Shown piece by piece: positions 2 to 56,976 of a stretch of DNA of 56,976 nt (its first letter is position 1; each line of letters starts with the position of its first letter). The position numbers were made by a program, and so were the translations under genes. Where the stretch lies: NCBI GenBank assembly GCA_051599415.1, contig AP039710.1:186001-242976 (forward strand), written 5' to 3'. Below the pieces are notes generated by a model, which was not told where the DNA came from, searched no databases, and was given only the letters and a program-made list of their open reading frames with translations. This DNA is from Savitreella phatthalungensis (taxonomy: Eukaryota).

Positions 2-2212
2 GACGGGTGTCTGGCACTCATCGTTCGAGTCCTCGTCGATGATCTGTTTGGCGAAACGGGTGCGGAAAAGGACGCGGAAGGGTACGTGTCGTCAATGAAA
101 GAGGTCAAGGCTCACAGGAGTTACGACTCGTTCGAGATCATCGCGCGCATCGCCTCACTCACCGCCATCGGTACCATCATACACCCAGTCCGACAACTCC
201 TGATCGAATCGTCCTCTATCAAGTCACTCCGCAAGATAGACGAAGTACTGCGGCGGATGTCGTTGGGACTTCTGAAGAACGATCAAGCAGCCTCACGCGA
301 AGGTCTCACCCTGTGCTACAACATCTACGAGCAGGCAGCCACAGCACCAAAGAACGGTCACAAGCTCATCCGATTCTCTCTCGACATCCTCCGAAATCTG
401 CTGACAGGACATCCGGAATTGTGCGTGCCATCCAACGTCGCTGCATTCGTGCCGGTGATTGGCGACGCGGTCATGTCGCCGCACGAGGACGTCCAGATGT
501 CGAGTCTCCGAATACTCACCCATCTCGTCAAGCTGGACGAGGCGGAGTTGCAAGCCGGCATGTCTGTCTTTGTCGATCGAGCCATGCAGCTGATTCGGTC
601 ATCCCCATCAACAAAGACAGAGCTCGCGCAGACAGCTCTCAAGTTCATGGCAGCAGTACTTCGTGACCGTCAATCGACACGCGTTCAAGACAGAGCGATT
701 GCCTACCTCCTCACCCGCGTCCGAGCAGACCTCGAGGAACCAGATCGCCAAGCCACAAGTTTCGCCCTCGTTCGAGCAGTTCTCAATCGCAAAACCATGC
801 TCACAGAAGTGTACGAGACGATGGATGCGATAGCGGAGATGGTCGTGACAAGTCAGAGCAGTAGTGGGCGAGCGATTGCGAGATCAGCGCTGTTTGCCTT
901 CCTACTCGACTACCCGCAAGGTAAAGCGCGATTCCGGAAGCAGATCTCATTCGTTCTAGGGAACCTGACATACATTCACTCCTCAGGCAGGCAATCGGTC
1001 CTCCAGCTGCTCGACCAGATCGTCAGCACCTTCCCACAGGAACTTCTGAAGGAAGACCATCTGGCAATCGCCCTAGCACTGACGATGTGCATGGTCAACG
1101 ACGACGAGGCAATCTGTCGCGAAGGCGCAGCCAAAGTCCTCAAGCGCCTCATCGACCGCACAGACGATAACAGACAACTAATGTCAGCTGTCAAGCAGTG
1201 GTTCCTTAACGGCGAAAACCCAACGCTAATCCGTGCAGCTGCCCAGGTCTTCGGCATCGTCTTCGAAGCAGGCGCAGCAAAATCCGACGACATCAAGGTC
1301 TTCATCGACATGGTCCGACTCCAAATCAAGTCTCACACAGCAGACCAGCAAGCCGACTGGCAACCACTATACTACTGTCTGATCGGTTTTACAAAGCTCC
1401 TAGCTTCTGACCCCGATACATACCTGAGTGCAGCGTTCCTGGAGATGTGGGTCGGTATCACAGATCTGCTGATGTTCCAGCACGCCTGGGTTCGGCTGGC
1501 TGCGTGTAGGCTGTTGGGCAACGCTTTTGGTGGGAAATCGAAAGTGACGACGACGGCTTTGGTGATGGGAAAGAATCTGAGTCTGACATCCGTTCAGCTA
1601 GTGACGGTCTCGAGGAAGCTTGTCCAGCAACTGAGATCGCCACACGTCACGCAAGATCTGTCATCGCAAGTGTCCAAGAACCTCGTCTTCCTCCTGAGGC
1701 TCTTCGACGAAGCCGCCTGGCAGATGGACGAGACGTCCTGTGTCGAGTGGCTTACACGCAAGCTCGCATCCCTCCTCCAGACAGACAAGGATCTCGACAA
1801 GGCGGTTGCAGGAATGATTCGCAGCGACCTGATCCGGATCCTAGCAGCGACCACGCAAAAGCTCGCGTCACCAACAATCGAACACCTCGCAGGAGTCATC
1901 ACCAGACCGCTGTACAAGTACGCGGAAGCAGAAGAAGCTTCATCGACCGACAAGGAAGACCTGCGTGAGCTTGCAAAGGAAGCGCTAGACCTTCTGAGGG
2001 AAAGACTAGGACCGACAGCGTTCGCTCAAGTCTACAACGAGACCCGCAGAAACCAGCTAGACATCAGAGCATCAAGGCTAGAGAAGCGAAGGATCGATAA
2101 AGTCGCAAACCCAGATCAAGCTGCAGCAAAGAGGATCAAGATGAACATCAGGAAGAAAGAAAGGCGTCAAGAACTCTCTCAAGACTATCGCCGTCGTAGA
2201 GAGATAGCCTAA
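2..2212 (+). CDS. UTP20: U3 snoRNP/SSU processome component Utp20, C-terminal part (5' end lies outside the window)
   Basis: Frame is open from base 2: DDLFGETGAEKDAEGYVSSMKEVK..SYDSFE, then FLLDYPQGK, SGRQSV and HAWVRLAACRLLG. HEAT-like helical composition and a basic C-terminal tail, all typical of the Utp20 C-terminus. Confidence 0.9.
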   Translation, partial: DGCLALIVRVLVDDLFGETGAEKDAEGYVSSMKEVKAHRSYDSFEIIARIASLTAIGTIIHPVRQLLIESSSIKSLRKIDEVLRRMSLGLLKNDQAASREGLTLCYNIYEQAATAPKNGHKLIRFSLDILRNLLTGHPELCVPSNVAAFVPVIGDAVMSPHEDVQMSSLRILTHLVKLDEAELQAGMSVFVDRAMQLIRSSPSTKTELAQTALKFMAAVLRDRQSTRVQDRAIAYLLTRVRADLEEPDRQATSFALVRAVLNRKTMLTEVYETMDAIAEMVVTSQSSSGRAIARSALFAFLLDYPQGKARFRKQISFVLGNLTYIHSSGRQSVLQLLDQIVSTFPQELLKEDHLAIALALTMCMVNDDEAICREGAAKVLKRLIDRTDDNRQLMSAVKQWFLNGENPTLIRAAAQVFGIVFEAGAAKSDDIKVFIDMVRLQIKSHTADQQADWQPLYYCLIGFTKLLASDPDTYLSAAFLEMWVGITDLLMFQHAWVRLAACRLLGNAFGGKSKVTTTALVMGKNLSLTSVQLVTVSRKLVQQLRSPHVTQDLSSQVSKNLVFLLRLFDEAAWQMDETSCVEWLTRKLASLLQTDKDLDKAVAGMIRSDLIRILAATTQKLASPTIEHLAGVITRPLYKYAEAEEASSTDKEDLRELAKEALDLLRERLGPTAFAQVYNETRRNQLDIRASRLEKRRIDKVANPDQAAAKRIKMNIRKKERRQELSQDYRRRREIA

Positions 2213-2405
2213 AAAGAAAAGGCAGCATCAAAGAGCGACATGACAAGAGCGTCAAGTCGTAGCATCTATTAGCATCACGTAATGACAAACGATCATGAGT
2301 ATGATTTGGAGAGCTAAGACAGAGCATGAGTACGACTAAAGAAGAGTGTGAGTAAGTATAGCGTGAGTAGTGTATATCCTGTGCATATATCCTGACAGGT
2401 GAAGA

Positions 2406-2433
2406 TGAGTCAAGTTTAACAGCACGTGACTCA
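2406..2433. promoter_or_regulatory. Two perfect TGA(C/G)TCA (Gcn4/CpcA/AP-1-type) sites upstream of ARG4
   Basis: TGAGTCA at 2406-2412 and TGACTCA at 2427-2433, about 135-160 bp before the ARG4 ATG. ARG4 is a known general-amino-acid-control target in yeasts. Confidence 0.6.
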
Positions 2434-2565
2434 CTCACTTTGTACTACCTCTCACAAAAACCCCATCACACGTACAACACTACTTCAGCAGTCATCCTCG
2501 CCCTCAATCACACTCCTACCCTCAAAGAACTCCTCTGACGCTCTCTACTACGCTCCTCTAGAGTC

Positions 2566-3574
2566 ATGGCAAAGCTGTAAGTCATCTCCGCACTCCTAAA
2601 AATCACTCTTCGTGGTTCATGACTGACTTATTCCAGATGGGGTGGACGGTTCACTGGAGCCACAGATCCATTGATGACCAGGTACAACGAGTCCCTGAGC
2701 TATGATAAGCGTATGTACGCGTGTGACGTTCAGGGTTCTATCACCTACGCTCGAGCACTCCAAAAGGTAGGCATCCTGACAGCAGAAGAGCTGTCAGAGA
2801 TTGAGCGTGGACTCCTACTCGTCCGTGACGAATGGGCAGCAGGCTCTTTTGTAGAGCAGGAAGGCGACGAGGACATCCACACGGCAAACGAGCGTCGTCT
2901 AGGAGAGATCATCGGCACACACATCGCAGGCAAGCTCCACACAGGTCGATCGCGCAACGACCAGGTGGCCACGGACATGAGGCTGTACGTGCGGTCGGAG
3001 GTGGATGCCGTTGCTGGCCTTCTGAAGGACCTCGTGAGGGTACTCGCAGGCAGGGCAAAGAGCGAGATCGATGTCGTCATGCCAGGCTATACCCACCTCC
3101 AGCGCGCGCAGCCGATCAGGTGGTCACACTTCCTGTGCTCGTACGCCCTCCAATTCGCCACAGACCTCGACCGGCTGAAAGAGCTCCGGGTACGTGTGAA
3201 CCAGTGTCCACTGGGCGCAGGAGCACTCGCAGGCAACCCTTTCCAAGTCGATCGAGACTTCATCGCCAAAGACCTCGGTTTCGACGGCGTGATCGACAAC
3301 TCCCTCCTAGCCGTCGCAGACAGGGACTTCATCCTCGAGTTCCTCATGTGGTCAACCTCCCTGACCTCACACATCTCACGTCTAGCAGAAGACCTGATCA
3401 TCTACTCCACCCAGGAATTCAGCTTCGTCAAGCTGTCCGACGCATACTCCACAGGATCCTCTCTCATGCCACAGAAGAAGAATCCAGACTCGCTCGAGCT
3501 CCTTCGTGGCAAGTCAGGCAGGGTGTTTGGACAGATGGCAGGATTTTCCATGACCTTGAAAGGTGTACCATCGA

Positions 3575-3606
<32 letters not shown>

Positions 3607-3999
3607 CCGCTGTTTGACTGTATCAGGACTGTCCAGGATTCTCTCGGTATCCTCACAGGCGTCCTCTCGACCCTAAACATCTTCCCAGACAAAATGCTAG
3701 CCGCTCTCGACGAGTTCATGCTCGCAACAGACCTAGCAGACTACCTCGTACGCAAGGGAGTCCCATTCCGACAGACACACCACATCTCGGGAGAATGCGT
3801 CAAGCTCTCAGAGGAGACTTCTCGACCACTTTCGAAAATCCCTCTCGAAGAGTTCAAAAAGATCCACCCACAGTTCGAGCAAGACCTTCAGGATGTGTGG
3901 AACTACGAGGCATCAGTCGAGAAGCGCGCATCCCGTGGTGGCACATCACGAGCCCGAGTCCAACAACAGATCGATCTCCTCGAAGCCCGTGTCGCCTAG
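2566..3999 (+). CDS. ARG4: Argininosuccinate lyase; two exons (2566-2576, 2637-3999)
   Basis: A 60-nt intron at 2577-2636 (GTAAGT...CTGAC...CCAG) restores the conserved start [17 protein letters not shown]. Signature motifs present: [32 protein letters not shown]. Confidence 0.97.
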
Positions 4000-4115
4000 C
4001 AGAGCAAAGCAGAGCAAAGCAAAGCTAGCCAGAGCACAGCATCGCAGGACATATCATATCATACATAATACAATACACTATAGACCAGACCGCGTCGTGC
4101 CCATGAGCTGGCCTC

Positions 4116-5090
4116 TTACTTGGATTTTGACAGCGACTCTGCAGGTTCATCGCTTGCGAACGATCTCTCTGCCGTACTCTTGACCGTCGGAGACCCTGTG
4201 ACGGTAGCCTCGCCACCAGTCCAGACCATATTCCCACCGAAGCTTCGACCCATATACCCGCCGCCGGCCCCAGCATCACCTCCAGCGCCACTGCCTTCAT
4301 TACCACCGGTCATGGTCTTCTGCCCGCGGTCATGCGCGAATCGACACCAGTCGTTCAGACACGGTGTGTACCTGCACTGTGGCAGACCTGAGCTTGTGTC
4401 TCTGTATGGGAAGTTGAGGGCCGGTGACGGATGTGTCTTGCTGCACTCCTTATCCTTGCAATCCTTGCCATCCTCACACGCGGCCGCCTCAAGCACCATC
4501 GAACTCCCATCCACGCCAGCAGGCGACGGGTGTCCATACACACACATCCGATTCGTACATCCTTCACCAAACCGGCACAGCGGTCTCTGCTCCTCAGCCA
4601 TCTCATCCGCGCTCGCACCAACCACCTCCTCCCGAGGGTGCACAAACGCGCATGACCGACCACGAGGGCATCCGGGCCAATCCCTACACGTCCGTCCTCC
4701 CATCGTGCTCGTGTCACGGGAGCTCCGTGCGGATGTACGTTGTGGACCGCCTGCAGGCTTCTGCTGTGGTGGTGATGGAGCGGTGGAGGCTACAACATCT
4801 GCTGTGGCAGGCGCAACAGGGGGGTACGGTGTGCCTGGTGCAGTGACCCGGGATGACTTCTTGTCCTCCAAGGGTGCAGGTGCGGGGGCAGGTGGCAGTT
4901 CCCTTTCACCCACCACCCACCGCGTGAACGCAGCATCGTACCCAGCCACAAGCTCAACAACCTCAGACGTCACCTCCTCAACACTCCGACCATTCTCAAC
5001 CAGCATCATAATGTACTCAGCAGTCCCAACACCATCAGCAGCATCGTACCGCTCAACTAGAGCCCGCGCAACCTCTTTGACGTCCCGCAT
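4116..5090 (-). CDS. NAB2: Nab2-like nuclear poly(A)-binding protein (PWI-like N-terminus plus tandem CCCH zinc fingers)
   Basis: N-terminal AEYIMMLVENGRS..EV..EV..LV..YD..FTRW. Repeated C-x5-C-x4/5-C-x3-H fingers (CRDWPGCPRGRSCAFVH, CRFGEGCTNRMCVYGH, CEDGKDCKDKECSKTH, CRYTPCLNDWCRFAH). Start set at the first ATG (5090) and is uncertain. Confidence 0.75.
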   Translation of the reverse strand: MRDVKEVARALVERYDAADGVGTAEYIMMLVENGRSVEEVTSEVVELVAGYDAAFTRWVVGERELPPAPAPAPLEDKKSSRVTAPGTPYPPVAPATADVVASTAPSPPQQKPAGGPQRTSARSSRDTSTMGGRTCRDWPGCPRGRSCAFVHPREEVVGASADEMAEEQRPLCRFGEGCTNRMCVYGHPSPAGVDGSSMVLEAAACEDGKDCKDKECSKTHPSPALNFPYRDTSSGLPQCRYTPCLNDWCRFAHDRGQKTMTGGNEGSGAGGDAGAGGGYMGRSFGGNMVWTGGEATVTGSPTVKSTAERSFASDEPAESLSKSK

Positions 5091-48815: not shown

Positions 48816-49174
48816 TAGGCGAGCAGCCACAAATACCCGTCAGTAATACTCGATCAACCAGATTCTCTTCTTCTTCTTTGTGGCTGCAGACGTGTGATGC
48901 CTAATTTGTGATCATCGTGCCGGCGGTGTTGATCGTGGTCATCGCGGTTGGTCTTGAAGCGACGATCTGTCGTCGTCGCAAGCGCGAAAGACGAGAGAGC
49001 TGCAATGCTCGCGACGTGAAATTCTTCCAAGGGCGCTTGAAATCCCCGAACTATCTCGTGCTCGCACAGGAGTGAAAGCCGTAGTCTCACAGAATAAAAC
49101 AAAGATCGCCGTAAAGCACGGAAATCACACTCTGTTGTCATGGCTATCATCACCATCAGCATTATCGTAGCTGC

Positions 49175-51100
49175 CTACAACGACAGTCGAGTACCATGAG
49201 TCGTAGCTCCAGCTCGTGCTGTAGAGGTCGGCGACCTGGAGCTCCGCGGGGTCCCGTCATTGTTCTGGGTCTGCATCATCCTCGGTACATCAGAAACGCC
49301 TTTGGACAATTGGAGCCGATTCTGAGTCGACTTCTTCGGCGGCCTGGAGCTCCGCTGAAAATCGTCATTGTTCTGAGTCTGCATCATCCTCGGTACATCA
49401 GAAACGCCTTTGGACAATCGGAGCCGATTCTGAATCGACTTCTTGACAAGATCAAGCGAAGTGACCGGCTTGGGACGTGAGCGACGGGAGCGTCGGGGCA
49501 ATTTCCGAAGCGTGCCTTCATCAGCGGACCATGGGCGCTGTGTCGAGGTGCTTGTGTTGTCGCGACTGCTGTCACTGCCAGAGTCAAGATCGGATGATTT
49601 TATGTTTGGATCCTTCACTTCGTCGTCTGGGGTGTCAGGCGGCGATGTTGTATAGGACTCATGTCCATCCTCGTCGAAATTGTCGGAAAAGAACCTGTCT
49701 GTGAACGATCGGGGAAGGTTGCATGGGTCGAATGCTTCGAGGCGATCGTCACCGACCTGGAAAGCTGCCCGATACTCTGGATCGTCATGAGACGGCGTCA
49801 GTGGACAAGTCAAGATTCGCGCGTCTCCGCGCAGAGTAACCACGAGGTCCACGAGAAACGCATAGCGTTCGTCATCGTCCGATAAGTCGTAGGTGCGTCC
49901 GACCAAAATCTGCAGAGCTTCGCGACCGGCACCGCCTGATACCGAGCTCTGGTTCTCCTGGTCGCGCCAGGCAATGCACAAGGTCGCTTCCAGATCCGTC
50001 TGGACCATCGCAGGAAGGGCACCGCGGACGGATCGACCGTCAATGATGACATGCGCCCGTCTAGCATCGCGCCATGGATCTTGCGTCAGGATCGCAAGGT
50101 AGGTGGCAAGCTGAGGTAATACCTTGTATACCTCTTGTTGCGTGACCTTGTGCTCCGCCAGAAAACGGATGTCGTCCATCAAGGGAATTCGTGGGATGAG
50201 GCACAAGTCGGCTGTGCCGCCATCGGCCCTTCTGCCAGACCGCTCACCGCGCTCGCTCGGCCACAGCAGCGGAACGAATGATGCTGCAGTCAGGGACGGT
50301 TCCCCGGTCGCGGTCTTTGAGAATTCGTCAGCACGAGTGAGCGCTCTAAGCAGCATTTCGAAGAAATCCTTCATCCTGCTTGTCATGTCGCGCTCGAACT
50401 CCTCCTCGGTTCTCAAGGCGAGAATTTCGAGAAAATCGCTCCACGTACTAGATCGTAGGACGTCCTGACAGCGCTGAGAAATGACTGGCGTCGGCTGATC
50501 CGAGTCAGCGTGTTCGAAGACGAAGCTGGAGAAGTGACAATCAAGCGCGCCCAGGCTCTGCAGACTGGCTCTGCTGGGACTGACACGTCGCACAGCGCCA
50601 GCTGACATCGGCATATGCCTCGCGAACCATGCTCGTGTGACCTCAAGCTCAAGAACTCCGTGACCATCCAGCTCTCCATCACCAAAGGCGATGCATTGGC
50701 GCACTCGCATGTTCGTATACTTGGGGCACCCGCAGTCAGAGTTGGTGGATATCTCACTGTCAGAGTCGGTGGACATCTCACTCGACACAGAGAGCGTGTC
50801 ATCTGAAGCCCGTCTCGAAGTCTCGCTGTGCGACGATGACGGCGGCGACGAAGATGTCAGCTCAGCGACCGCATCTTCGGGCTGAACTTGGCTCATCCCG
50901 ATCAATGCCAAAGTCCTCAGGTGTATCCCTTTGCCGGTCTCGTCGTAGTCTCTGAGGCGTGATGAAGACACGAGTGGACTCTTTGTCGCTGTCACTGATG
51001 ACGGTGTAACTGTGACCTGCCTGACAGTCGTCAGCGGTCCACGACCGATGGCCGAGGGGTCGATTTTCACGTCCTGGCAAGCGTCCATGATCTCCATCAT
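49175..51100 (-). CDS. Hypothetical protein with a PD-(D/E)xK restriction-endonuclease-like motif set and disordered termini
   Basis: 641-codon ORF containing GTADLCL..FLAEHK..VLPQLATYL (D, ExK, QxxxY), with Ser/Asp-rich flanks. Confidence 0.6.
   Translation of the reverse strand: MMEIMDACQDVKIDPSAIGRGPLTTVRQVTVTPSSVTATKSPLVSSSRLRDYDETGKGIHLRTLALIGMSQVQPEDAVAELTSSSPPSSSHSETSRRASDDTLSVSSEMSTDSDSEISTNSDCGCPKYTNMRVRQCIAFGDGELDGHGVLELEVTRAWFARHMPMSAGAVRRVSPSRASLQSLGALDCHFSSFVFEHADSDQPTPVISQRCQDVLRSSTWSDFLEILALRTEEEFERDMTSRMKDFFEMLLRALTRADEFSKTATGEPSLTAASFVPLLWPSERGERSGRRADGGTADLCLIPRIPLMDDIRFLAEHKVTQQEVYKVLPQLATYLAILTQDPWRDARRAHVIIDGRSVRGALPAMVQTDLEATLCIAWRDQENQSSVSGGAGREALQILVGRTYDLSDDDERYAFLVDLVVTLRGDARILTCPLTPSHDDPEYRAAFQVGDDRLEAFDPCNLPRSFTDRFFSDNFDEDGHESYTTSPPDTPDDEVKDPNIKSSDLDSGSDSSRDNTSTSTQRPWSADEGTLRKLPRRSRRSRPKPVTSLDLVKKSIQNRLRLSKGVSDVPRMMQTQNNDDFQRSSRPPKKSTQNRLQLSKGVSDVPRMMQTQNNDGTPRSSRSPTSTARAGATTHGTRLSL
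49229..49444. repeat. 108-bp in-frame tandem duplication (2 copies, 36 aa) in the ORF C-terminus
   Basis: KKS(I/T)QNRL(R/Q)LSKGVSDVPRMMQTQNND..RSSR.P occurs twice; copy ends at 49336 and 49444. Confidence 0.9.
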
Positions 51101-52089
51101 CTTTGGAGCTCTGCGATCGACAGGAGTGGAAGGGTCGCGTGCCCGTCAGGAGACGTATGAGAGAAACAGCTGGAGGACTAGCATGCGCGAGTCTCTCAGG
51201 CTGCCCACATGCCAATCTCGCACAAAGCGGTCAGTAGACCTATTGCCCGCTCAGTAGAGCGCGGAGACCTTAGGAGAATCGGGAACGCCAGGTTCAAGCA
51301 GGATCGTGATCCAGGCGGCTACAGATACCCGATCAGTGAATGAACCCACCGGGCGCTCGCGTCTGCTTTGAGTATTCTAATTCGATTTCCTTGTTTGTTG
51401 TGGATAATCGCTATGCCGTCATTTAAGTCACGTATATGCCTTGCACGATTTCGGGGTGATGCTAAAATTAGTCTCTGTGAGAGCTCGAGTGAAGGAATTT
51501 TTGGAATGTAATATTTGATCCTGCATTCGAGGGACTCACGGTATATATGTATTCCAGGCTAGATACAAACTTGATCGTGTGCATCATTCAGGATTGCAAA
51601 TCTCACGTTGTGGCAGGTGCATGATTCAATCCATAGGGCAGGTAGAGCCGATCACGATAAGGACGACGCCCGAGGATGCACGACGTGGATGTGCATTCCA
51701 GGGATAGCGCTGCGTTCTGCGGATAAGACACAGGGATATCGAGGGTGCAGAGACATGATCTTGGAGATGCAGCACGTCGTCCCTTTGAGATAATTGTCGA
51801 CAATGCAGTACCAGTCATCATGGACATGGGGAGGAGCCACAGGCGAGGTCCTCCATGTCAAGGTCACGTGAGCTCTACGCATAAGGATGATCCGGCTCCA
51901 CAATGAACCGGCCTCCTAGCAATGTGCTGTCGAGACTACACCAAACGCGACTTGCTCCAGTGTCCAACAGCACACAAAGAATTTGAACACGGATGCGGGC
52001 CAAGCTGTGAACTTTTTTGTCAATCAACCTGTCAGCGCACATCAAATCTGGACATCACTGGAGACCTATTTGCATCATGATTAACAAGG

Positions 52090-53340
52090 CTATATATATT
52101 CCGTTCAAAAATCCCAAACTGTTTTCAGCGGCGCCAGATTTTAGCCATGATGTTAAGGATGAAACACTGCATGGCATTCCTAACTGTAAGTCAACAGTTA
52201 GGGACAAATCAAACTGTAAAACCAAACTGTAAAACCAAACTGTAAAACCAAACTGTAAAACCAAACTGTAAAACCAAACTGTAAAACCAAACTGCGAAAG
52301 CAAACTGCAAAACCGAACTGCAAAACCAAACTGCAAGAACCAAACTGCAAGAAACAAATTGCAAGAACAAAACTGCAAAACCAAACTGGAAAACTAAATT
52401 GCAGCACACAGCAAATTCTGACCTGATTGCATCCCAGACTGCAGGGCCAGACTGCAGCGCTCAACAAATCTGTAGTATGCACGCCAGCAGCAGTAGCAGC
52501 AGCAGTGGTGGTCATGGCAGTAGCAGCAGTAGTAGCAGCAGCAGTGGCAGCAGTAGTAACAGCAGTAGTAACGGCAGCAGCAGCGAATGCAGCAGTAGCT
52601 GTTGTAGTGGCAGTATTGGAATGAGTGAAGATGATGGTGGAAGTAGTCTATATATATTCCGTTCAAAAATCCCAAACTGTTTTCAGCAGCGCCAGATTAT
52701 AGCCATGAAGTTAGGGATGAAACACTGCATGGCATCCCTAACTGTAAGTCAACAGTTAGGGACAAACCAAACTGTAAAACCAAACTGTAAAACCAAACTG
52801 TAAAACCAAACTGTAAAAACCAAACTGTAAAACCAAACTGCAAAACCAAACTGCAGCTGTGAACCTAACTGCAAACCAAACTGCAAAAACCAAACTGCAA
52901 AAACCAAACTGCAAAAACCAAACTGCAAAACCAAACTGCAAAACCAAACTGCAAGAGTCCAGTTAGGGACAAACCAAACTGTAAAACCAAACTGTAAAAA
53001 CCAAACTGCAAAAACCAAACTGCAAGAACCAAACTGCAGAACCAAACTGCAGCGCTCAACAAATTTGAACCAAACCGCAAAACCAAACTGCAAGAACCAA
53101 ACTGCAAGAACCAAACTGCAAGAACCAAACTGCAAGAACCAAACTGCAGAACCAAACTGCAGAACCAAACTGCAGCGCTCAACAGATTTGAACCAAACTG
53201 CAAAACCAAACTGCAGCCGTGAACCTAACTGCAAACCAAACTGCAAAACCAAACTGCAAAACCAAACTGCAACAACCAAACTGCAAAAACCAAACTGCAG
53301 CGCTCAACAAATTTGAACCTAACTGCATCCCAAACTGCAG
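52090..53340. repeat. Subtelomeric repeat complex: two ~120-bp modules 558 bp apart, each followed by a 13-14 bp minisatellite (AAAACCAAACTGY), with a (GCA/GTA)n block between
   Basis: Modules start at 52090 and 52648 (CTATATATATTCCGTTCAAAAATCCC...CAGTTAGGGACAAA). Arrays run about 52205-52400 and 52763-53340. Trinucleotide block about 52485-52615. Confidence 0.93.
52735..52762. other. Perfect 11-6-11 inverted repeat TCCCTAACTGT-AAGTCA-ACAGTTAGGGA (second copy with one mismatch at 52177-52204)
   Basis: The arms are exact reverse complements and contain CCCTAA/TTAGGG. Function is inferred only. Confidence 0.8.
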
Positions 53341-53949
53341 CACGAGAAAAACTTTGCCCACAACAAGTGTACCCTCTGTTAGGACCTATGGAGGCAGGAT
53401 ATGAAGGCATCAAGGATAGATACCTCAAATGGTTAAGCAACTGGCCATGGAATCTTGATGCTGGAATACCAGGACACAGATATGTCCACATACTTGCTGA
53501 CGTGTCCAGATGTTGTTGTGAGTATTTGACTTGCCATGCCCGTTAGCATATTCATGACCTTGAACGTGGATATTAGGCGTTCAGCATTGAACATACCCGA
53601 CAGTCGTGACTGTGGATATAATTGCCAGATATGCCTGTAGCATTCAATTGTAAACTGTTGCACCCGACTGTAATCATGTGTCTTGAAATTGTCGTGGACC
53701 ATGATGTACCATTGGCACATGACTTGAATCTGTTAGAGGCAAGTGCATGCCTGCAGACAGATACATGCCCGGATGTGAAAGCATGGTCAGTCAGGCATCA
53801 TGCCAAGGGCGCGTGCACACGTATGCTGTCGGCATTGCATTTCATGCTGCAGCAAGCACCTGGCTTGCCTGAATATAAAGGATCTTATTGTCGTCAAGGG
53901 TCCCCTCCAAAGAACATCAAGTCATCTTGTCTTCTCAAGCTCCATCACA

Positions 53950-56691
53950 ATGCTCTTCAAAAGCGACTCTTTCAACTTTGTTCTCTGTGCTGATCATGGC
54001 GGCATTGAGCCTGGCCTCACATGCCTCATGCGACATCTTCATCGTGCGCACCCTGAAGTTGATAAGGCTGAGGCAGAGAGTATCCAGCAATGTCTCACTG
54101 ATGCCTTCATCATTTCTGCCAACAACCTTGACACTGTCCGTCAGCTTGTGCAGGAAGTCAACTATCAGATTGATGTGCCCCTTGCGCATCTCCCAATTCT
54201 CCCGGGTTTTGCCTGCAGCTCCTGCAATGAGCCATTCCTCAACAAGCGTGCACTCCAGGTGCACATCAAGCAATCTCATCCAGACAGCAGCGTCATTGTT
54301 GAGCTTGCCTGCAAGGTCCAACAGCTCTTCAACAGGTCTCCTCAGCGTGGCGCTGCCCTTCTTGTCAGGGTCCCTGACGACAGCGCTGTCATCACCAAAG
54401 TGACAACCGATTCTGGGGTCATCCCGGAACTGATCCAGCAGCTCCAGCTCACCTCGGCGCCTGCTCTCACTGGAGACGCAATCATCCATCCGCCAACCTG
54501 GGTCATTGACCATGACTTACTGGACTTTGTCGAGGACAACCATGAGCGCATGCCAGTCAGTAGCCAACTCCAGACGGCCTGCCAAGAGCTCATCCAGGAG
54601 ACACACGAGCAGTGCCGCAGTGGATGGCTCAACCTCTTGACCCGCTCAATCCTCACCAAGTACACTGGGCAGGACAATGCTGATGGCAGTCCTCCCTTGC
54701 GACTCATCAAGAACCCCGCGACCCTTATCCGTTATGCCAACACGCTTGCAGCTGCCCTTGCCTACGCACCTGGAGCCAATGTTCCTGGCCTCTCAAAGGA
54801 TTCCGTCTACACCTCAGCCTTGGCTCTCTTCAAGCAGGGTATCACTCATCGGCCATTGGAGTCTCCACTCATCCAGTATCTTGCACTCTCGTCTCGCGCT
54901 CCCAGCGGTGGCCGATTCTACCCTGCCTCCTCAACCTCATCCAGGGCTGCTGGTCTCATCTACTGTGCGCAGCTTCTCCTGACCAGGGAGGCCGCCATCA
55001 CCAATTCCTTCCCCATCGACAAGCATCTGTCCAAGCTGTGCGGCCAGTACCTTTGCAATGGCTCGAGCACTGCAATGGGGTTTGTCCTGATGCTCAACCG
55101 CTCATTGCGCAATGCTGCAGCCAATGAACACTCCGAATTTCTCTGCAGTTATGTCAAAGGCGCCTTCATCATACAAGGCTTGGCTGTTACACTCTCACAG
55201 CTGTCGGATGTCTACACCAGCACCCTTGCCGATGCCCAGAAGTTGTACTCGCAGCTTACATTTGACACTCGCAGTCACACAGACATCAGCAAGCTCTGCT
55301 CCGCCGTCCACACCAATGAAGCGGGATCTTTCCTCACAGACAACAACCTCACCTACACTTTGGTTGCCAACATGCTCACAAGCGCCTGTGAAGCCAAGAC
55401 CTTTCGCCCCAATGAGTGGACCAGACACCAGCCGGCGATCATCTCTGCTCCCGACAGGGCTCTTGAGGAGGTTGCTCAGGATGACATAGAGGAGGATCTT
55501 GCTGGAGATGATCAGAGCGAGGAGGGACATGGCCTGGATGCAATCCAAGACGACAGCTCTGAGGACGACGCATCTGAATACCTTGAATCTGACACAGAGC
55601 TGTCCCAGGCAAGACCCAATCCGTCGCAGTCGGTACGATTCATCTCCAGCCAGCAACACTGGTACAAGCGCACTGCATTGAGTCTCATCAAGGACCTTGC
55701 CATCCTGTGCCACTTCTTTGCTGGCTCTCCAATGCGAGGCACAGAGATCCTCCAAACCACCATCAACACAGACAACCGAGGTCGACGTGGTCTGAACATT
55801 GAACAAGGTCTTGTCCTCTTGGCGGGCCTGCACTGCAAGACAACCAACACAACCAGGCAGGACATCATCAACAATCACCGGTTCCTGCCGCCTGCTGTTG
55901 GCCAGCTTGTTGTGGATACCTGCGTGTATGTCCTGCCGCTTGTCAGGGCCCTCTGTGGTGTCAGGGCTCCCCAGATTGCGTATCTCTTTGCTGATGTGCA
56001 CAATCGGCCACTGGACTCTCAGCAGCTCCGCAGGGCATTTCAGGAGCGCTGCCGCAAGGCTGACTGTCCGCCCTTGAACCTGAATCAGCTCCGACACATT
56101 GCCGAGGTCATCACACGCTCCTTCATTGTCACCCCAAATGACAGCGGTCCCAGTACAATCCAGTTGGCGCTCCATCTCCAGAGCGGACACACCTCAAGAA
56201 CTGCTGCCCAGCACTATGCGCAGCAAAAGTCTGTTGGCCCGCTGCAATACCTCCAGCCCAGTGTCCATGCAGCCGCGCTCCAGGCAAGTTCCGCCTGGCA
56301 GGCTGTCTTTGGCATTGTGTTGGAATCAGAGTCGGAAGAGACAGAGGACCTAACGGATGAGCAGGCAGAGACGGTGTCATTCTCACAGGAGCAGATTCTT
56401 GCAGCAGGTCAATTGCTCTTTCCCTCGACTAATTTCTGTTGGCAATCCGGTCAGCAAGAGCTTGCCACCTTCCTGGCAAATGATACAAAGCACAATGCAA
56501 TTGTCGTCCAGCGCACTGGTGCAGGCAAGACCATCCCACTGATGATCCTTGCACGTCTCATTGCGCCCTCAAAGTGTGTTGTTGTTGTTGTGGCCCCTCT
56601 CTCAACCCTGCGTATGGATCTGAAGCGACGCTTTGCACAGCAGGGGCATATGCGTGCAGACAAATGTAGCGTAGCAAGGCAGCAGGCGTGA
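53950..56691 (+). CDS. Telomere-linked helicase (TLH)-type protein, 3'-truncated: C2H2-like fingers, tyrosine-recombinase-like domain, first motifs of a RecQ-like SF2 helicase
   Basis: VLCADH..RHLHRAH and FACSSC..VHIKQSH..VQQLF fingers; GSPMRGTEI, LHCK, RFLP, QLRHI and LQSGHTSRTAAQHYA; then WQSGQQE, QRTGAGKT (Walker A) and VVAPLSTL (motif Ia). Stop follows with no DExH motif. The probable start is ATG 53950; the frame is open from 53800. Confidence 0.82.
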   Translation: MLFKSDSFNFVLCADHGGIEPGLTCLMRHLHRAHPEVDKAEAESIQQCLTDAFIISANNLDTVRQLVQEVNYQIDVPLAHLPILPGFACSSCNEPFLNKRALQVHIKQSHPDSSVIVELACKVQQLFNRSPQRGAALLVRVPDDSAVITKVTTDSGVIPELIQQLQLTSAPALTGDAIIHPPTWVIDHDLLDFVEDNHERMPVSSQLQTACQELIQETHEQCRSGWLNLLTRSILTKYTGQDNADGSPPLRLIKNPATLIRYANTLAAALAYAPGANVPGLSKDSVYTSALALFKQGITHRPLESPLIQYLALSSRAPSGGRFYPASSTSSRAAGLIYCAQLLLTREAAITNSFPIDKHLSKLCGQYLCNGSSTAMGFVLMLNRSLRNAAANEHSEFLCSYVKGAFIIQGLAVTLSQLSDVYTSTLADAQKLYSQLTFDTRSHTDISKLCSAVHTNEAGSFLTDNNLTYTLVANMLTSACEAKTFRPNEWTRHQPAIISAPDRALEEVAQDDIEEDLAGDDQSEEGHGLDAIQDDSSEDDASEYLESDTELSQARPNPSQSVRFISSQQHWYKRTALSLIKDLAILCHFFAGSPMRGTEILQTTINTDNRGRRGLNIEQGLVLLAGLHCKTTNTTRQDIINNHRFLPPAVGQLVVDTCVYVLPLVRALCGVRAPQIAYLFADVHNRPLDSQQLRRAFQERCRKADCPPLNLNQLRHIAEVITRSFIVTPNDSGPSTIQLALHLQSGHTSRTAAQHYAQQKSVGPLQYLQPSVHAAALQASSAWQAVFGIVLESESEETEDLTDEQAETVSFSQEQILAAGQLLFPSTNFCWQSGQQELATFLANDTKHNAIVVQRTGAGKTIPLMILARLIAPSKCVVVVVAPLSTLRMDLKRRFAQQGHMRADKCSVARQQA

Positions 56692-56792
56692 GCAAAGAAA
56701 CAAGGTCAGCAGGCAAGCAAGCAAGCGAGCAAAGCGGAGTGAGGGTTGGGGCATTGGTTAGTTTGACGGCGGTTAGTTTTTGTGTGTCAGGG

Positions 56793-56900
56793 TTAGGGTT
56801 AGGGTTAGGGTTAGGGTTAGGGTTAGGGTTAGGGTTAGGGTTAGGGTTAGGGTTAGGGTTAGGGTTAGGGTTAGGGTTAGGGTTAGGGTTAGGGTTAGGG
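56793..56900 (+). repeat. Telomere tract (TTAGGG)x18
   Basis: 108 bp of perfect repeats, preceded by TCAGGG and degenerate variants. The G-rich strand runs toward the window end. Confidence 0.98.
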
Positions 56901-56901
56901 T

Positions 56902-56968
56902 AGGTGCTGTTCTCGCAAAGGCAGAAAGTAGTCTTAACCTTAGCAATACGTAACTGAACGAAGTACAT
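56902..56968. other. Untrimmed Oxford Nanopore native barcode (barcode 06) and ligation adapter; technical artefact
   Basis: AGGTGCTG + TTCTCGCAAAGGCAGAAAGTAGTC + TTAACCTT + AGCAATACGTAACTGAACGAAGTACAT. This is the native-barcode flanks plus the reverse complement of adapter AATGTACTTCGTTCAGTTACGTATTGCT. Confidence 0.95.
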
Positions 56969-56976
56969 AAACTACA

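Follow-up and report, generated by a model that had tools for sequence, protein, structure and literature searches.

The two 11-6-11 palindromes close to the end of the Savitreella phatthalungensis contig AP039710.1 are not independent of each other; they are copies of one site in successive monomers of a subtelomeric repeat block. They look more like candidate docking sites for telomere proteins than like targets of a recombinase. The window, i.e., the whole stretch of 56,976 nucleotides which was analysed, contains housekeeping ORFs up to about 48 kb, followed toward the end by the block, a telomere-linked helicase (TLH) ORF and the telomere. All coordinates are those of the window and all features are on the + strand.

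The repeat block and its palindromes

The repeat block spans about 52089-53338, holds both palindromes and is made of short tandem repeats fused together, telomere-like motifs included. Its monomers are ordered head, palindrome, 13-mer satellite and tail. Monomer 1 (52087..52451) consists of an 87-nt head starting with CTATATATATTCC, the palindrome, the satellite and a tail; in monomer 2 (52645..53347) head and palindrome are followed by an expanded satellite with an internal restart, and by a tail. Satellite array 1 (52206..52403) has 15 copies of AAACCAAACTG[T/C]A at 89% matches, array 2 (52764..53299) has 39 copies at 79% matches (both by Tandem Repeats Finder). The tails (52390-52451 and 53286-53347) match at 77%. 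The monomers are joined by a CAG/CAGTAG-rich linker (52452..52644) with tandem-repeat rows at 52485-52599. In other contigs sequence like that from 52447 onward comes after monomer tails, with four joints leading back to 52447.

The initial annotation had described a perfect palindrome, a second copy with one mismatch and a lone right arm at about 52960, and all three are borne out. Palindrome copy 2 (52735..52762) reads TCCCTAACTGT-AAGTCA-ACAGTTAGGGA and is perfect. Copy 1 (52177..52204) reads TTCCTAACTGT-AAGTCA-ACAGTTAGGGA, the single arm mismatch being TTCC on the left where copy 2 has TCCC. The spacer AAGTCA and the orientation are identical in both and the distance is 558 nt. The lone right arm, CAGTTAGGGAC, lies at 52960..52970 and is followed by a satellite start as after the palindromes; in the unit alignment this partial unit aligns with monomer 2.

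The palindromes are embedded in a direct repeat of 179 nt (52087-52265 and 52645-52823, 95% identical, spacing 558), in which they have the same offset in both units. The alignment of the two monomers runs from the head into the satellite. Copy 2 descended from copy 1, and the shared spacer and orientation exist because of descent by duplication.

With inverted arms of 11 nt around a 6-nt spacer that is asymmetric, the geometry is of the dif/lox/FRT type. This invites the proposal that the palindromes are core sites used by the tyrosine-recombinase-like TLH domain, which would cut where arm and spacer meet and in this way swap chromosome ends, excise a 558-bp circle or capture a circular TLH element. 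We consider this improbable. A first point against it is already evident, i.e., the common spacer and orientation stem from duplication and not from selection.

How exceptional are the palindromes? At up to 3 mismatches the 28-mer is found twice in the window and not once in 100 shuffles. Perfect inverted repeats with 11-nt arms and a spacer of 0-10 nt occur once in the window, compared with a mean of 0.255 (maximum 3) in 200 first-order Markov simulations of the window. When one mismatch is allowed there are 5, three of which are one site shifted, against a mean of 6.6. A lone perfect inverted repeat with 11-nt arms alone is not rare. The non-random part is the motif content and the place of the palindromes. 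All 8 matches of CCTAACTG in the window fall in 52179-53325, where 0.9 would be expected, and apart from its terminal array the window has 6 CCCTAA/TTAGGG hexamers, 5 of which are located in 52198-52968. Each palindrome arm carries one TTAGGG hexamer, the two forming an inverted pair 14 bp apart. The arm hexamer is followed by AC and no second telomere repeat.

The arms are related to the satellite. There are about 50 occurrences of the satellite core CCAAACTG, all of them in one orientation, and the satellite unit resembles the C-strand telomere motif. Five matches of CCTAACTG have the satellite orientation, namely the 2 left arms, 2 variants in array 2 (52864 and 53224) and 1 in the tail of monomer 2, just beyond the array (53318). 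Three are inverted and these are the three right arms. A variant of the satellite unit makes up the left arm, and the unit is found inverted nowhere but in the right arm.

Arms which are satellite-unit variants, together with the chance expectation given above, are what one would anticipate if the palindrome had no sequence-specific function and were a by-product of satellite evolution, one unit inverted beside a direct one and then passively kept and made uniform with its monomer through gene conversion and unequal exchange between subtelomeres. Its role would then be at most that of a hairpin or cruciform which stalls forks and raises local recombination. The hairpin which copy 2 can form as single-stranded DNA is stable (-11 kcal/mol, z -5.2), and copy 1 folds at -8.1 kcal/mol (z -3.9). 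Between the two units there are 4 substitutions in the 87-nt head and 1 in the 28-nt palindrome, thus head and palindrome diverge at similar rates. Decayed arms in some copies elsewhere fit this explanation as well. On the other side, the inverted unit is seen only as the TTAGGG-bearing variant, three times, which is a hint that the hexamer matters, and the reference letters are retained in most of the summed depth of the left arm. Taken together, a mere by-product is possible, if rather unlikely.

Two further candidates were rejected. A relic of a fold-back (inverted duplication) is ruled out as complementarity ends at the 11-nt arms. A protelomerase-type site is ruled out as the central 6 nt are not self-complementary; the protelomerase TelA reaches a Z of only about 5. 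A search of metagenome contigs for the palindrome with free spacer gave 0 matches.

Copies of the block and of the palindrome in public-run contigs

Four sequencing runs, none of them of RNA, match the stretch, and the figures are chiefly from the best-matching one, run X1. In this run the unique flank is a single contig at a depth of 79.8 and the helicase ORF a single contig at a depth of 79. Bins within 52120-53419 have summed depths of 607-4681, many times those of the flanks, summed contig depth not being equal to copy number. Another copy of the block resides on a 35-kb single-depth contig. By summed contig depth the block is many-copy and the helicase gene single-depth. The helicase stretch is one unbranched contig of 3393 nt at depth 79, and X1 contains no second contig at ≥80% likeness to it; more diverged paralogues fall below that cut-off. 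In run X2 the TLH stretch is nearly without cover, a gap from which no absence follows, and run X4 has a low-complexity match only.

Distal to the block, a telomere-adjacent sequence (56638..56788) which is common to many contigs joins the truncated ORF to the telomere. Its summed depth is 1980.7 versus 79 for the ORF. Position 56670 is covered by 20 contigs, and a loose end before 56638 is present in 8 contigs. The terminal (TTAGGG)n (56789..56901) comprises 18.8 units at 100% matches.

How do these contigs bear on the recombinase-site proposal? A palindrome which rides on a many-copy block is expected for a shared exchange site. In X1, however, the palindrome is many-copy and the TLH stretch is single-depth and unbranched. 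Since this holds at ≥80% likeness, the site is unlinked to TLH copies at that level. The linkage of site and gene which the proposal implies was accordingly not found.

For the left arm most of the summed depth retains the reference letters, yet in at least three variants at single depth an arm is broken or the spacer is shorter. One variant block copy lacks 4 nt of the left arm (74.6 of a summed depth of 6259.4 in X1). In another the spacer is one base shorter and the right-arm hexamer has two changes. In a third the right arm is altered at its outer end. In some block copies TTAGGG is gone from an arm; such losses fit weak or no constraint as well as a decay of spare copies. The palindrome has decayed in some block copies, and the variants, at least three, in which an arm is broken or the spacer length differs lean against a recombinase site.

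Homology breakpoints had been anticipated in AAGTCA. Instead, the boundaries of the repeats and of the duplication fall at 52087 and 52645, outside the spacer and some 88 nt upstream of each palindrome. A deletion of 558 bp had likewise been anticipated; among the 15 joints listed of 24 none skips 558 nt, contigs being blind to rare events. The joints at 52204 and 52762 coincide with the border of arm and satellite, where arrays of unequal length misalign anyway. As to the joints at 52745 and 52747, diverged copies account for at least the latter. Copy number, arms and spacer, boundaries and joints thus all lean against the palindromes as cognate sites of the ORF. As contig data cannot reveal rare events, the recombinase-site idea is weakened, not refuted.

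The same depth figures affect the notion that head and palindrome form a cis-regulatory module. In it a TATA-like head would drive a non-coding subtelomeric transcript, or the module would control the TLH gene as a distal operator; the palindrome would bind a dimeric transcription factor or act as an RNA hairpin. CTATATATA opens the head, some 87 nt ahead of either palindrome, the palindromes precede the TLH start by 1.2 and 1.75 kb, and a Fusarium study describes TLH genes elsewhere as silent until telomere crisis (10.1101/2024.02.27.582403). But the module is many-copy and the TLH gene single-depth. In addition, a search of 51000-54000 with Rfam yields no family at gathering score; three matches are far below it, all in the CAG-rich linker. 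We regard such a module as very unlikely.

The TLH protein and its recombinase-like domain

The TLH ORF (53950..56688) has 913 codons and ends just past helicase motif I. Pfam detects an OrsD-type C2H2 region (residues 24-111, E 1.3e-5) and, at 843-901, the beginning of DEAD. At E<=1e-3 the ORF has 380 relatives. DEAD plus Helicase_C are present in 14 of 17 scanned relatives, OrsD in 11 of 17. Judged by its sequence, the telomere-adjacent ORF is a TLH protein with N-terminal C2H2, TLH domain and RecQ-like helicase, the composition of C2H2 motifs, TLH domain and RecQ-like helicase that the Fusarium study gives for the family (10.1101/2024.02.27.582403). A homologous-protein search with the ORF (longer and near lengths) returned no matches. 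Metagenome contigs searched with the single TLH protein gave 106 pattern matches and 0 relatives. In a protein atlas the closest clusters hold hypothetical proteins from fungi; an integrase cluster of bacteria comes as late as rank 22 (score 0.88) and is a lead only.

The TLH domain (55672..56229, about residues 575-760) models as a tyrosine-recombinase/topoisomerase-IB-like catalytic fold. The model of residues 560-800 has a pLDDT of 78.5. The solved structure closest to it is that of an archaeal Xer (Z 12.3, rmsd 3.4 over 154 aligned residues). Of 48,161 representatives of solved chains 12 reach Z>=8, i.e., 11 tyrosine recombinases, which take the top 11 places, and one topoisomerase IB; unrelated folds stay at Z <=5.2. 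The candidate catalytic residues R596, K630, R715, H747 and Y756 are nearly invariant among relatives: R 145/146, K 148/148, R 146/147, H 140/145 and Y 143/143, counting only non-gap rows of 157 aligned rows from 150 relatives. The earlier suggestion of a recombinase-like ORF downstream of the palindromes is thus sustained by the modelled fold and these residues.

At the sequence level, Pfam Phage_integrase scores 20.2 bits on the TLH domain, below the cut-off of 27.1; it is found in 1 of 20 aligned members at E<=0.1 and in 0 of 17 full-length relatives at E<=0.01. A TLH-domain profile has 0 matches among PDB sequences. A recombinase core-binding domain was sought in residues 250-559, for which the model is unusable (pLDDT 40.7).

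This domain counts toward the recombinase-site proposal: an ORF 1.2 kb downstream of the sites which models as a tyrosine-recombinase fold and which has near-invariant R, K, R, H and Y. Yet the first His of the HxxR box is absent; the residue three before the second Arg is A, S, Q, R or N. What remains, R-K-R-H plus Y, is the usual pattern of type IB topoisomerases, enzymes that do not require a specific site. A precedent for the proposal exists in nimavirus proteins with C2H2 plus tyrosine recombinase, which integrate into telomere repeats (PMC10871703). Other TLH regions are flanked by telomere repeats (10.1101/2024.02.27.582403).

One may go further and propose that TLH proteins are fusions of a putatively active tyrosine recombinase/type-IB-topoisomerase-like domain with a RecQ-like helicase, which would cleave the double-TTAGGG palindrome on every block copy for strand exchange. 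We place little belief in this. If true, the function of TLH/Y'-type helicases would become directly testable with a simple substrate, and so would their past or present mobility. If the palindromes were recombinase sites, chromosome ends including the TLH gene would be swapped, captured or excised site-specifically, beyond homologous recombination alone. A full-text literature search retrieved no link between TLH or fungal subtelomeric helicases and tyrosine recombinases or integrase-like domains. The TLH domain has so far been unexplained, and here a conserved catalytic set is located in a modelled fold.

Proposed telomere-protein docking and comparison with known systems

The functional reading which we favour is that of paired sites for Myb-type telomere proteins, putative as these are; it had been named as an alternative in the initial annotation. 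In full, it states that the palindromes are an element of a subtelomeric repeat of the X-element/HAR type (HAR, helicase-associated repeat) and present paired TTAGGG candidate half-sites to Myb-type proteins. We give it an even chance. The location of the block between unique genes and the TLH gene and telomere counts toward it. The many-copy block parts chromosome-unique DNA from the truncated TLH gene and the telomere, and its role may be like that of the yeast X element or the helicase-associated repeats of Magnaporthe. The palindrome consists of a satellite-type unit, CCTAACTGTAA, abutting its sole inverted copy, which puts two TTAGGG hexamers into inverted positions. Such paired half-sites may dock a dimeric Myb/SANT protein of the Tay1/Trf1, Trf2 or Tbf1/Teb1 type, and docking could serve as boundary, in silencing or in end protection. 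Chromosome ends would then be exchanged through homologous recombination of the ordinary kind, running across the block.

The Myb telomere proteins known so far bind preferentially to one and a half to two repeats. The single hexamer per arm speaks against docking, and so does the similar pace of change of head and palindrome between units. It counts toward docking that in Ustilago maydis (M. maydis), a basidiomycete model of the Ustilaginomycotina, shelterin includes Trf1/Tay1 and Trf2 (PMC13234504).

On their own, the palindromes are a further case of telomere-like motifs in helicase-associated subtelomeric repeats, as known from Magnaporthe, Fusarium and yeast. The value of the locus is in the combination: a site of recombinase geometry on a many-copy block beside a TLH gene with a domain modelled as recombinase/topoisomerase IB.

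Core sites of tyrosine recombinases are built 11-6-11 (dif) or 13-8-13 (loxP and FRT). The palindromes share with them the inverted 11-nt arms, the asymmetric 6-nt spacer and a nearby gene for a tyrosine-recombinase fold. Unlike in dif, loxP and FRT, some other copies here lose symmetry or spacer length, and the arms are satellite units.

In Saccharomyces cerevisiae subtelomeric repeats contain TTAGGG (Tbf1) sites beside Y' helicase elements. The Y' helicase is not known to carry a TLH domain. The block has no sequence relation to the yeast X element, and Tbf1-like binding is putative here. The likeness is one of organisation, i.e., a shared block with telomere motifs which is proximal to a helicase element and, in our case presumably, present at more ends than it; the X element is discussed in the Magnaporthe paper (PMC1635262).

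Endogenous nimaviruses resemble the locus in that a C2H2-containing tyrosine recombinase is tied to telomere-repeat DNA (PMC10871703). They differ in being viral and residing in arthropods, in inserting within (TAACC)n arrays and, in the accessible text, in the lack of a helicase fusion (PMC10871703).

A counterpart which favours the docking reading is found in Magnaporthe oryzae, where tandem HARs flank TLH genes (PMC1635262). HAR-C, at the proximal boundary, is a 14-mer opening with the reverse-complement telomere motif, HAR-F and HAR-G include TTAGGG, and HAR-D contains a 23-bp imperfect palindrome; the authors liken HARs to the yeast X element and propose binding of telomere proteins (PMC1635262). 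In both systems blocks of short tandem repeats are placed between unique DNA and TLH; in both, a 13-14-mer bears the reverse-complement telomere motif, further units include TTAGGG, and a short palindrome is part of one unit (PMC1635262). The sequences are unrelated, and only here are the arms of a perfect 11-6-11 palindrome made of telomere motifs, as far as the accessible text of that report goes. Further, most M. oryzae ends carry HARs plus TLH (PMC1635262), whereas here the block appears to be many-copy and the TLH gene is single-depth.

In Fusarium oxysporum TLH regions are located at 79-92% of ends, and the parts of the study available describe no palindromic arrangement (10.1101/2024.02.27.582403). 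Telomere repeats, often a single unit, are on both sides of these regions. As in our window, telomere units which are often single and telomere-oriented precede an end-located TLH region on its proximal side, and the protein is likewise composed of C2H2, TLH domain and RecQ-like helicase (10.1101/2024.02.27.582403).

Organization of the chromosome end

The window terminates in a chromosome end. Long, intron-free fungal housekeeping ORFs extend up to about 48 kb. The last ORF ahead of the repeat block (49175-51100, minus strand) encodes 641 aa rich in Ser and Asp, contains a 24-nt tandem repeat at 50735-50782 and matches no Pfam family at E≤1. An A-rich stretch of low GC content follows (0.433 at 52001-54000). 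Beyond the block, an ORF of 913 codons on the plus strand (53950-56688) is by its sequence a telomere-linked helicase (TLH). About 100 nt past this ORF a terminal TTAGGG array with 18.8 perfect units occupies 56789-56901. The final 75 nt (56902-56976) are non-telomeric and look like a nanopore native-barcode adapter, in reverse complement, that may have stayed on the end of the contig; in that case the telomere would be where a read physically ends.

It is not the telomere repeats themselves that truncate the TLH ORF but some 150 nt of telomere-adjacent sequence (56638-56788), joined to it at about 56638. This sequence is common to many other contigs, 20 of them at position 56670, and eight contigs part before 56638 into one common other sequence.

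The palindromes within a higher-order repeat

The initial annotation had described two 11-6-11 palindromes as candidate recombinase targets; their letters and positions are exactly as described. The perfect palindrome, TCCCTAACTGT-AAGTCA-ACAGTTAGGGA, lies at 52735-52762, a copy with one left-arm mismatch at 52177-52204, and a lone right arm, CAGTTAGGGAC, at 52960-52970. As a bare inverted repeat the palindrome hardly exceeds chance. The window contains 1 perfect inverted repeat (arms of 11 nt, spacer of 0-10 nt) vs a mean of 0.255 in first-order Markov simulations (n=200, maximum 3 per window); when one mismatch is allowed, 5 are seen, three of which are one site shifted, vs a mean of 6.6. The second palindrome is not an independent event. 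Both occupy the same position within the units of a direct repeat of 179 nt (52087-52265 and 52645-52823, 95% identical, 558 nt apart), and the units can be aligned from CTATATATATTCC across the palindrome into the satellite. Thus, the common spacer and orientation are explained by descent. Substitutions between the units number 4 over the 87 nt of the head and 1 over the 28 nt of the palindrome, i.e., the palindrome is kept no better than its flank. The motif content of the block is clearly non-random: all 8 matches to CCTAACTG in the window fall within 52179-53325 (0.9 expected), as do five of the six telomere hexamers outside the terminal array within 52198-52968.

The anatomy of the block is directly evident. 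It is a higher-order tandem repeat of two monomers, with the order head, palindrome, satellite, tail and linker. Immediately after each palindrome a 13-mer satellite, AAACCAAACTG[T/C]A, begins, with 15 copies at 52206-52403 and 39 copies at 52764-53299. About 50 copies of the satellite core CCAAACTG are present, all of them in the same orientation. CCTAACTG is a one-letter variant of this core. It is present five times in satellite orientation (the two left arms, 52864 and 53224 in the second array, and 53318 in the tail of the second monomer) and three times inverted (the right arm of each palindrome and the lone one). Therefore, the left arm belongs to the satellite-type units, of which the right arm is the only inverted form. 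A structural or neutral origin, in which an inverted satellite unit was carried along by concerted evolution, is a serious rival explanation, even if on balance a doubtful one; a possible hairpin (-11 kcal/mol, z -5.2) speaks in its favor.

The monomer tails (52390-52451 and 53286-53347) are 77% identical. A CAG/CAGTAG-rich linker (52452-52644) separates the monomers and attracts unrelated low-complexity contigs from two of the sequencing runs (X3 and X4). A 134-codon ORF over the linker (52399-52803) looks like a low-complexity artefact. The sole weak Rfam matches fall in the linker, all far under the gathering score. A regulatory module, in which a TATA-like head would act together with a palindrome serving as operator or folding as an RNA hairpin, is very improbable; no Rfam family match backs it, and none of the four public runs that contain the stretch is an RNA run.

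Contigs of four public runs were aligned to 49000-56790 at 80% likeness. X1 and X2 represent one sample, possibly the source of the window, and therefore are not independent support. The block recurs elsewhere in the genome, as do the 150 nt next to the telomere, while this TLH gene is without a close second copy. In X1 a single contig (50008-52119, depth 79.8) makes up the unique flank, and the TLH stretch is a single unbranched contig of 3393 nt (53308-56700, depth 79, no differences); no second X1 contig at 80% likeness covers 53420-56019. Summed depth amounts to 607-4681 in the bins between 52120 and 53419 and to 1981 in the final 250 nt before the telomere, summed contig depth not being equal to copy number. 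A 35-kb single-depth X1 contig ends in a diverged block copy, i.e., at least one further locus exists. In X2 the unique flank contig has a depth of 281.5 and the TLH stretch (53308-56622) only three short contigs (depth 10.6, 2.2 and 3.5), unlike X1, in which both are about 79 deep. This drop could be a filter artefact or heterogeneity downstream of the repeat block at this end.

The palindrome is not kept in all other copies. In one variant four left-arm letters are missing (74.6 of 6259.4 depth, X1), in another the spacer is one base shorter and the right-arm hexamer has two changes, and in a third the outer end of the right arm is changed. Among 15 of 24 contig joints, at least five have their start at or inside a palindrome (52204, 52745, 52747, 52759 and 52762). 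Two of these five are at the border between right arm and satellite, a place where arrays that differ in length misalign anyway, and two are diverged copies with an altered palindrome. A 558-nt skip is absent among the same 15 joints. The X2 loose ends near the second monomer, among those listed, are at 52654, 52704 and 52721, upstream of the palindrome and outside its spacer.

The TLH protein and its recombinase-like domain

The TLH ORF encodes a C2H2 region of OrsD type (residues 24-111, E 1.3e-5) and only the first 60 residues of a DEAD-box helicase domain (843-901), after which it ends. A search of 1.84 billion representatives yielded 380 relatives at E≤1e-3, the closest 51% identical; the conserved part comprises residues 570-900. 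DEAD and Helicase_C are present in 14 of 17 scanned relatives, OrsD in 11. The ORF and its relatives match the three-part TLH architecture described as C2H2, a TLH domain of about 250 residues and a RecQ-like helicase (10.1101/2024.02.27.582403). Sections 3, 12 and 14 of that paper, and its passages on the TLH domain, unknown function or recombination, assign this domain no function.

The label "recombinase-like" of the initial annotation is borne out at the level of the fold by structure matches and conserved residues. An AlphaFold model of residues 560-800 (55627-56349; 20 aligned sequences) has a pLDDT of 78.5. The Foldseek matches listed are exclusively tyrosine recombinases, all weak (best E 2.8e-3). 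In VIA-align comparisons an archaeal Xer scored Z 12.3 (rmsd 3.4, 154 aligned), XerH 11.5 and Cre 11.2. When 48,161 representative chains were scanned independently, tyrosine recombinases took the top 11 positions, followed by topoisomerases IB, Flp, Ndc10 and QRICH1, with unrelated folds at Z 5.2 or less. The catalytic residues are conserved in an alignment of 150 relatives (157 rows, gaps not counted): first Arg 145/146, hairpin Lys 148/148, second Arg 146/147, His 140/145 and Tyr 143/143. Type IB topoisomerases, enzymes without need of a specific site, have this R-K-R-H plus Tyr set as well. A model of residues 250-559, built to seek a core-binding domain, was too poor to use (pLDDT 40.7).

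Several results speak against simple membership among the tyrosine recombinases. Pfam Phage_integrase remains under its cut-off (20.2 bits vs 27.1), reaches E≤0.1 in just 1 of 20 aligned members and E≤0.01 in none of 17 full-length relatives. The TLH-domain profile has no match among PDB sequences, and the HxxR box lacks a conserved first His in the 157 rows. From the model, the TLH domain is predicted to have a tyrosine-recombinase/topoisomerase-IB fold, its catalytic set being conserved, and this result may be new. A full-text literature search, with most subscription journals including the 2009 paper defining the TLH domain outside its scope, returned no link of TLH, tlh1 or fungal subtelomeric helicases to tyrosine recombinases or integrase-like domains; among the papers listed, those on Chlamydomonas and Trypanosoma cruzi that touch tyrosine recombinase, RecQ and subtelomeres do not deal with TLH as far as their passages or abstract go. 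A recombinase-like fold fused to a RecQ-like helicase recalls helicase-topoisomerase pairings.

The initial interpretation holds in part: the recombinase-like gene is real as to fold and residues, but the link from gene to site is unsupported. That the palindromes are recombination sites of the neighbouring TLH protein is unlikely. The geometry is correct, the adjoining protein has the fold and the residues, and nimaviruses are described to have telomere-specific tyrosine recombinases with C2H2 domains (PMC10871703), yet each test run here failed or came out neutral. The main value lies in a testable pairing of a site of recombinase geometry with a helicase of recombinase fold.

Parallels at other fungal chromosome ends

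By position, make-up and apparent distribution the block is most likely an X-element-type subtelomeric repeat. TTAGGG units are present on the plus strand at 52198, 52711, 52756 and 52963. A degenerate right-arm-like motif, CTGTTAGGAC, is located at 53376-53385 in telomere orientation, just inside the single-copy TLH region. Together they form a series of solitary telomere-like units on the proximal side of TLH. TLH regions of Fusarium oxysporum are drawn likewise, flanked on either side by telomere repeats that are often single units (10.1101/2024.02.27.582403).

If the palindromes have a function, the most likely one would be to offer a pair of half-sites to a dimeric TTAGGG-binding protein of Myb type. 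The shelterin components reported for M. maydis, Ustilaginomycotina, include Trf1/Tay1 and Trf2 (PMC13234504). We infer that the block would bind telomere proteins and have a boundary role.

The closest published description, as far as the accessible text goes, is that of a Magnaporthe oryzae chromosome end (PMC1635262). There, "helicase-associated repeats" flank the TLH genes, the proximal boundary is a 14-mer starting with a reverse-complement telomere motif, other repeat units contain TTAGGG and one unit has a 23-bp imperfect palindrome. Given the X-element-type repeat and the Magnaporthe and Fusarium parallels, the palindromes are therefore read as part of the repeat monomer. They belong to an already known kind of subtelomeric repeat; the authors of the Magnaporthe study compare their block with the yeast X element and propose an interaction with telomere proteins (PMC1635262).
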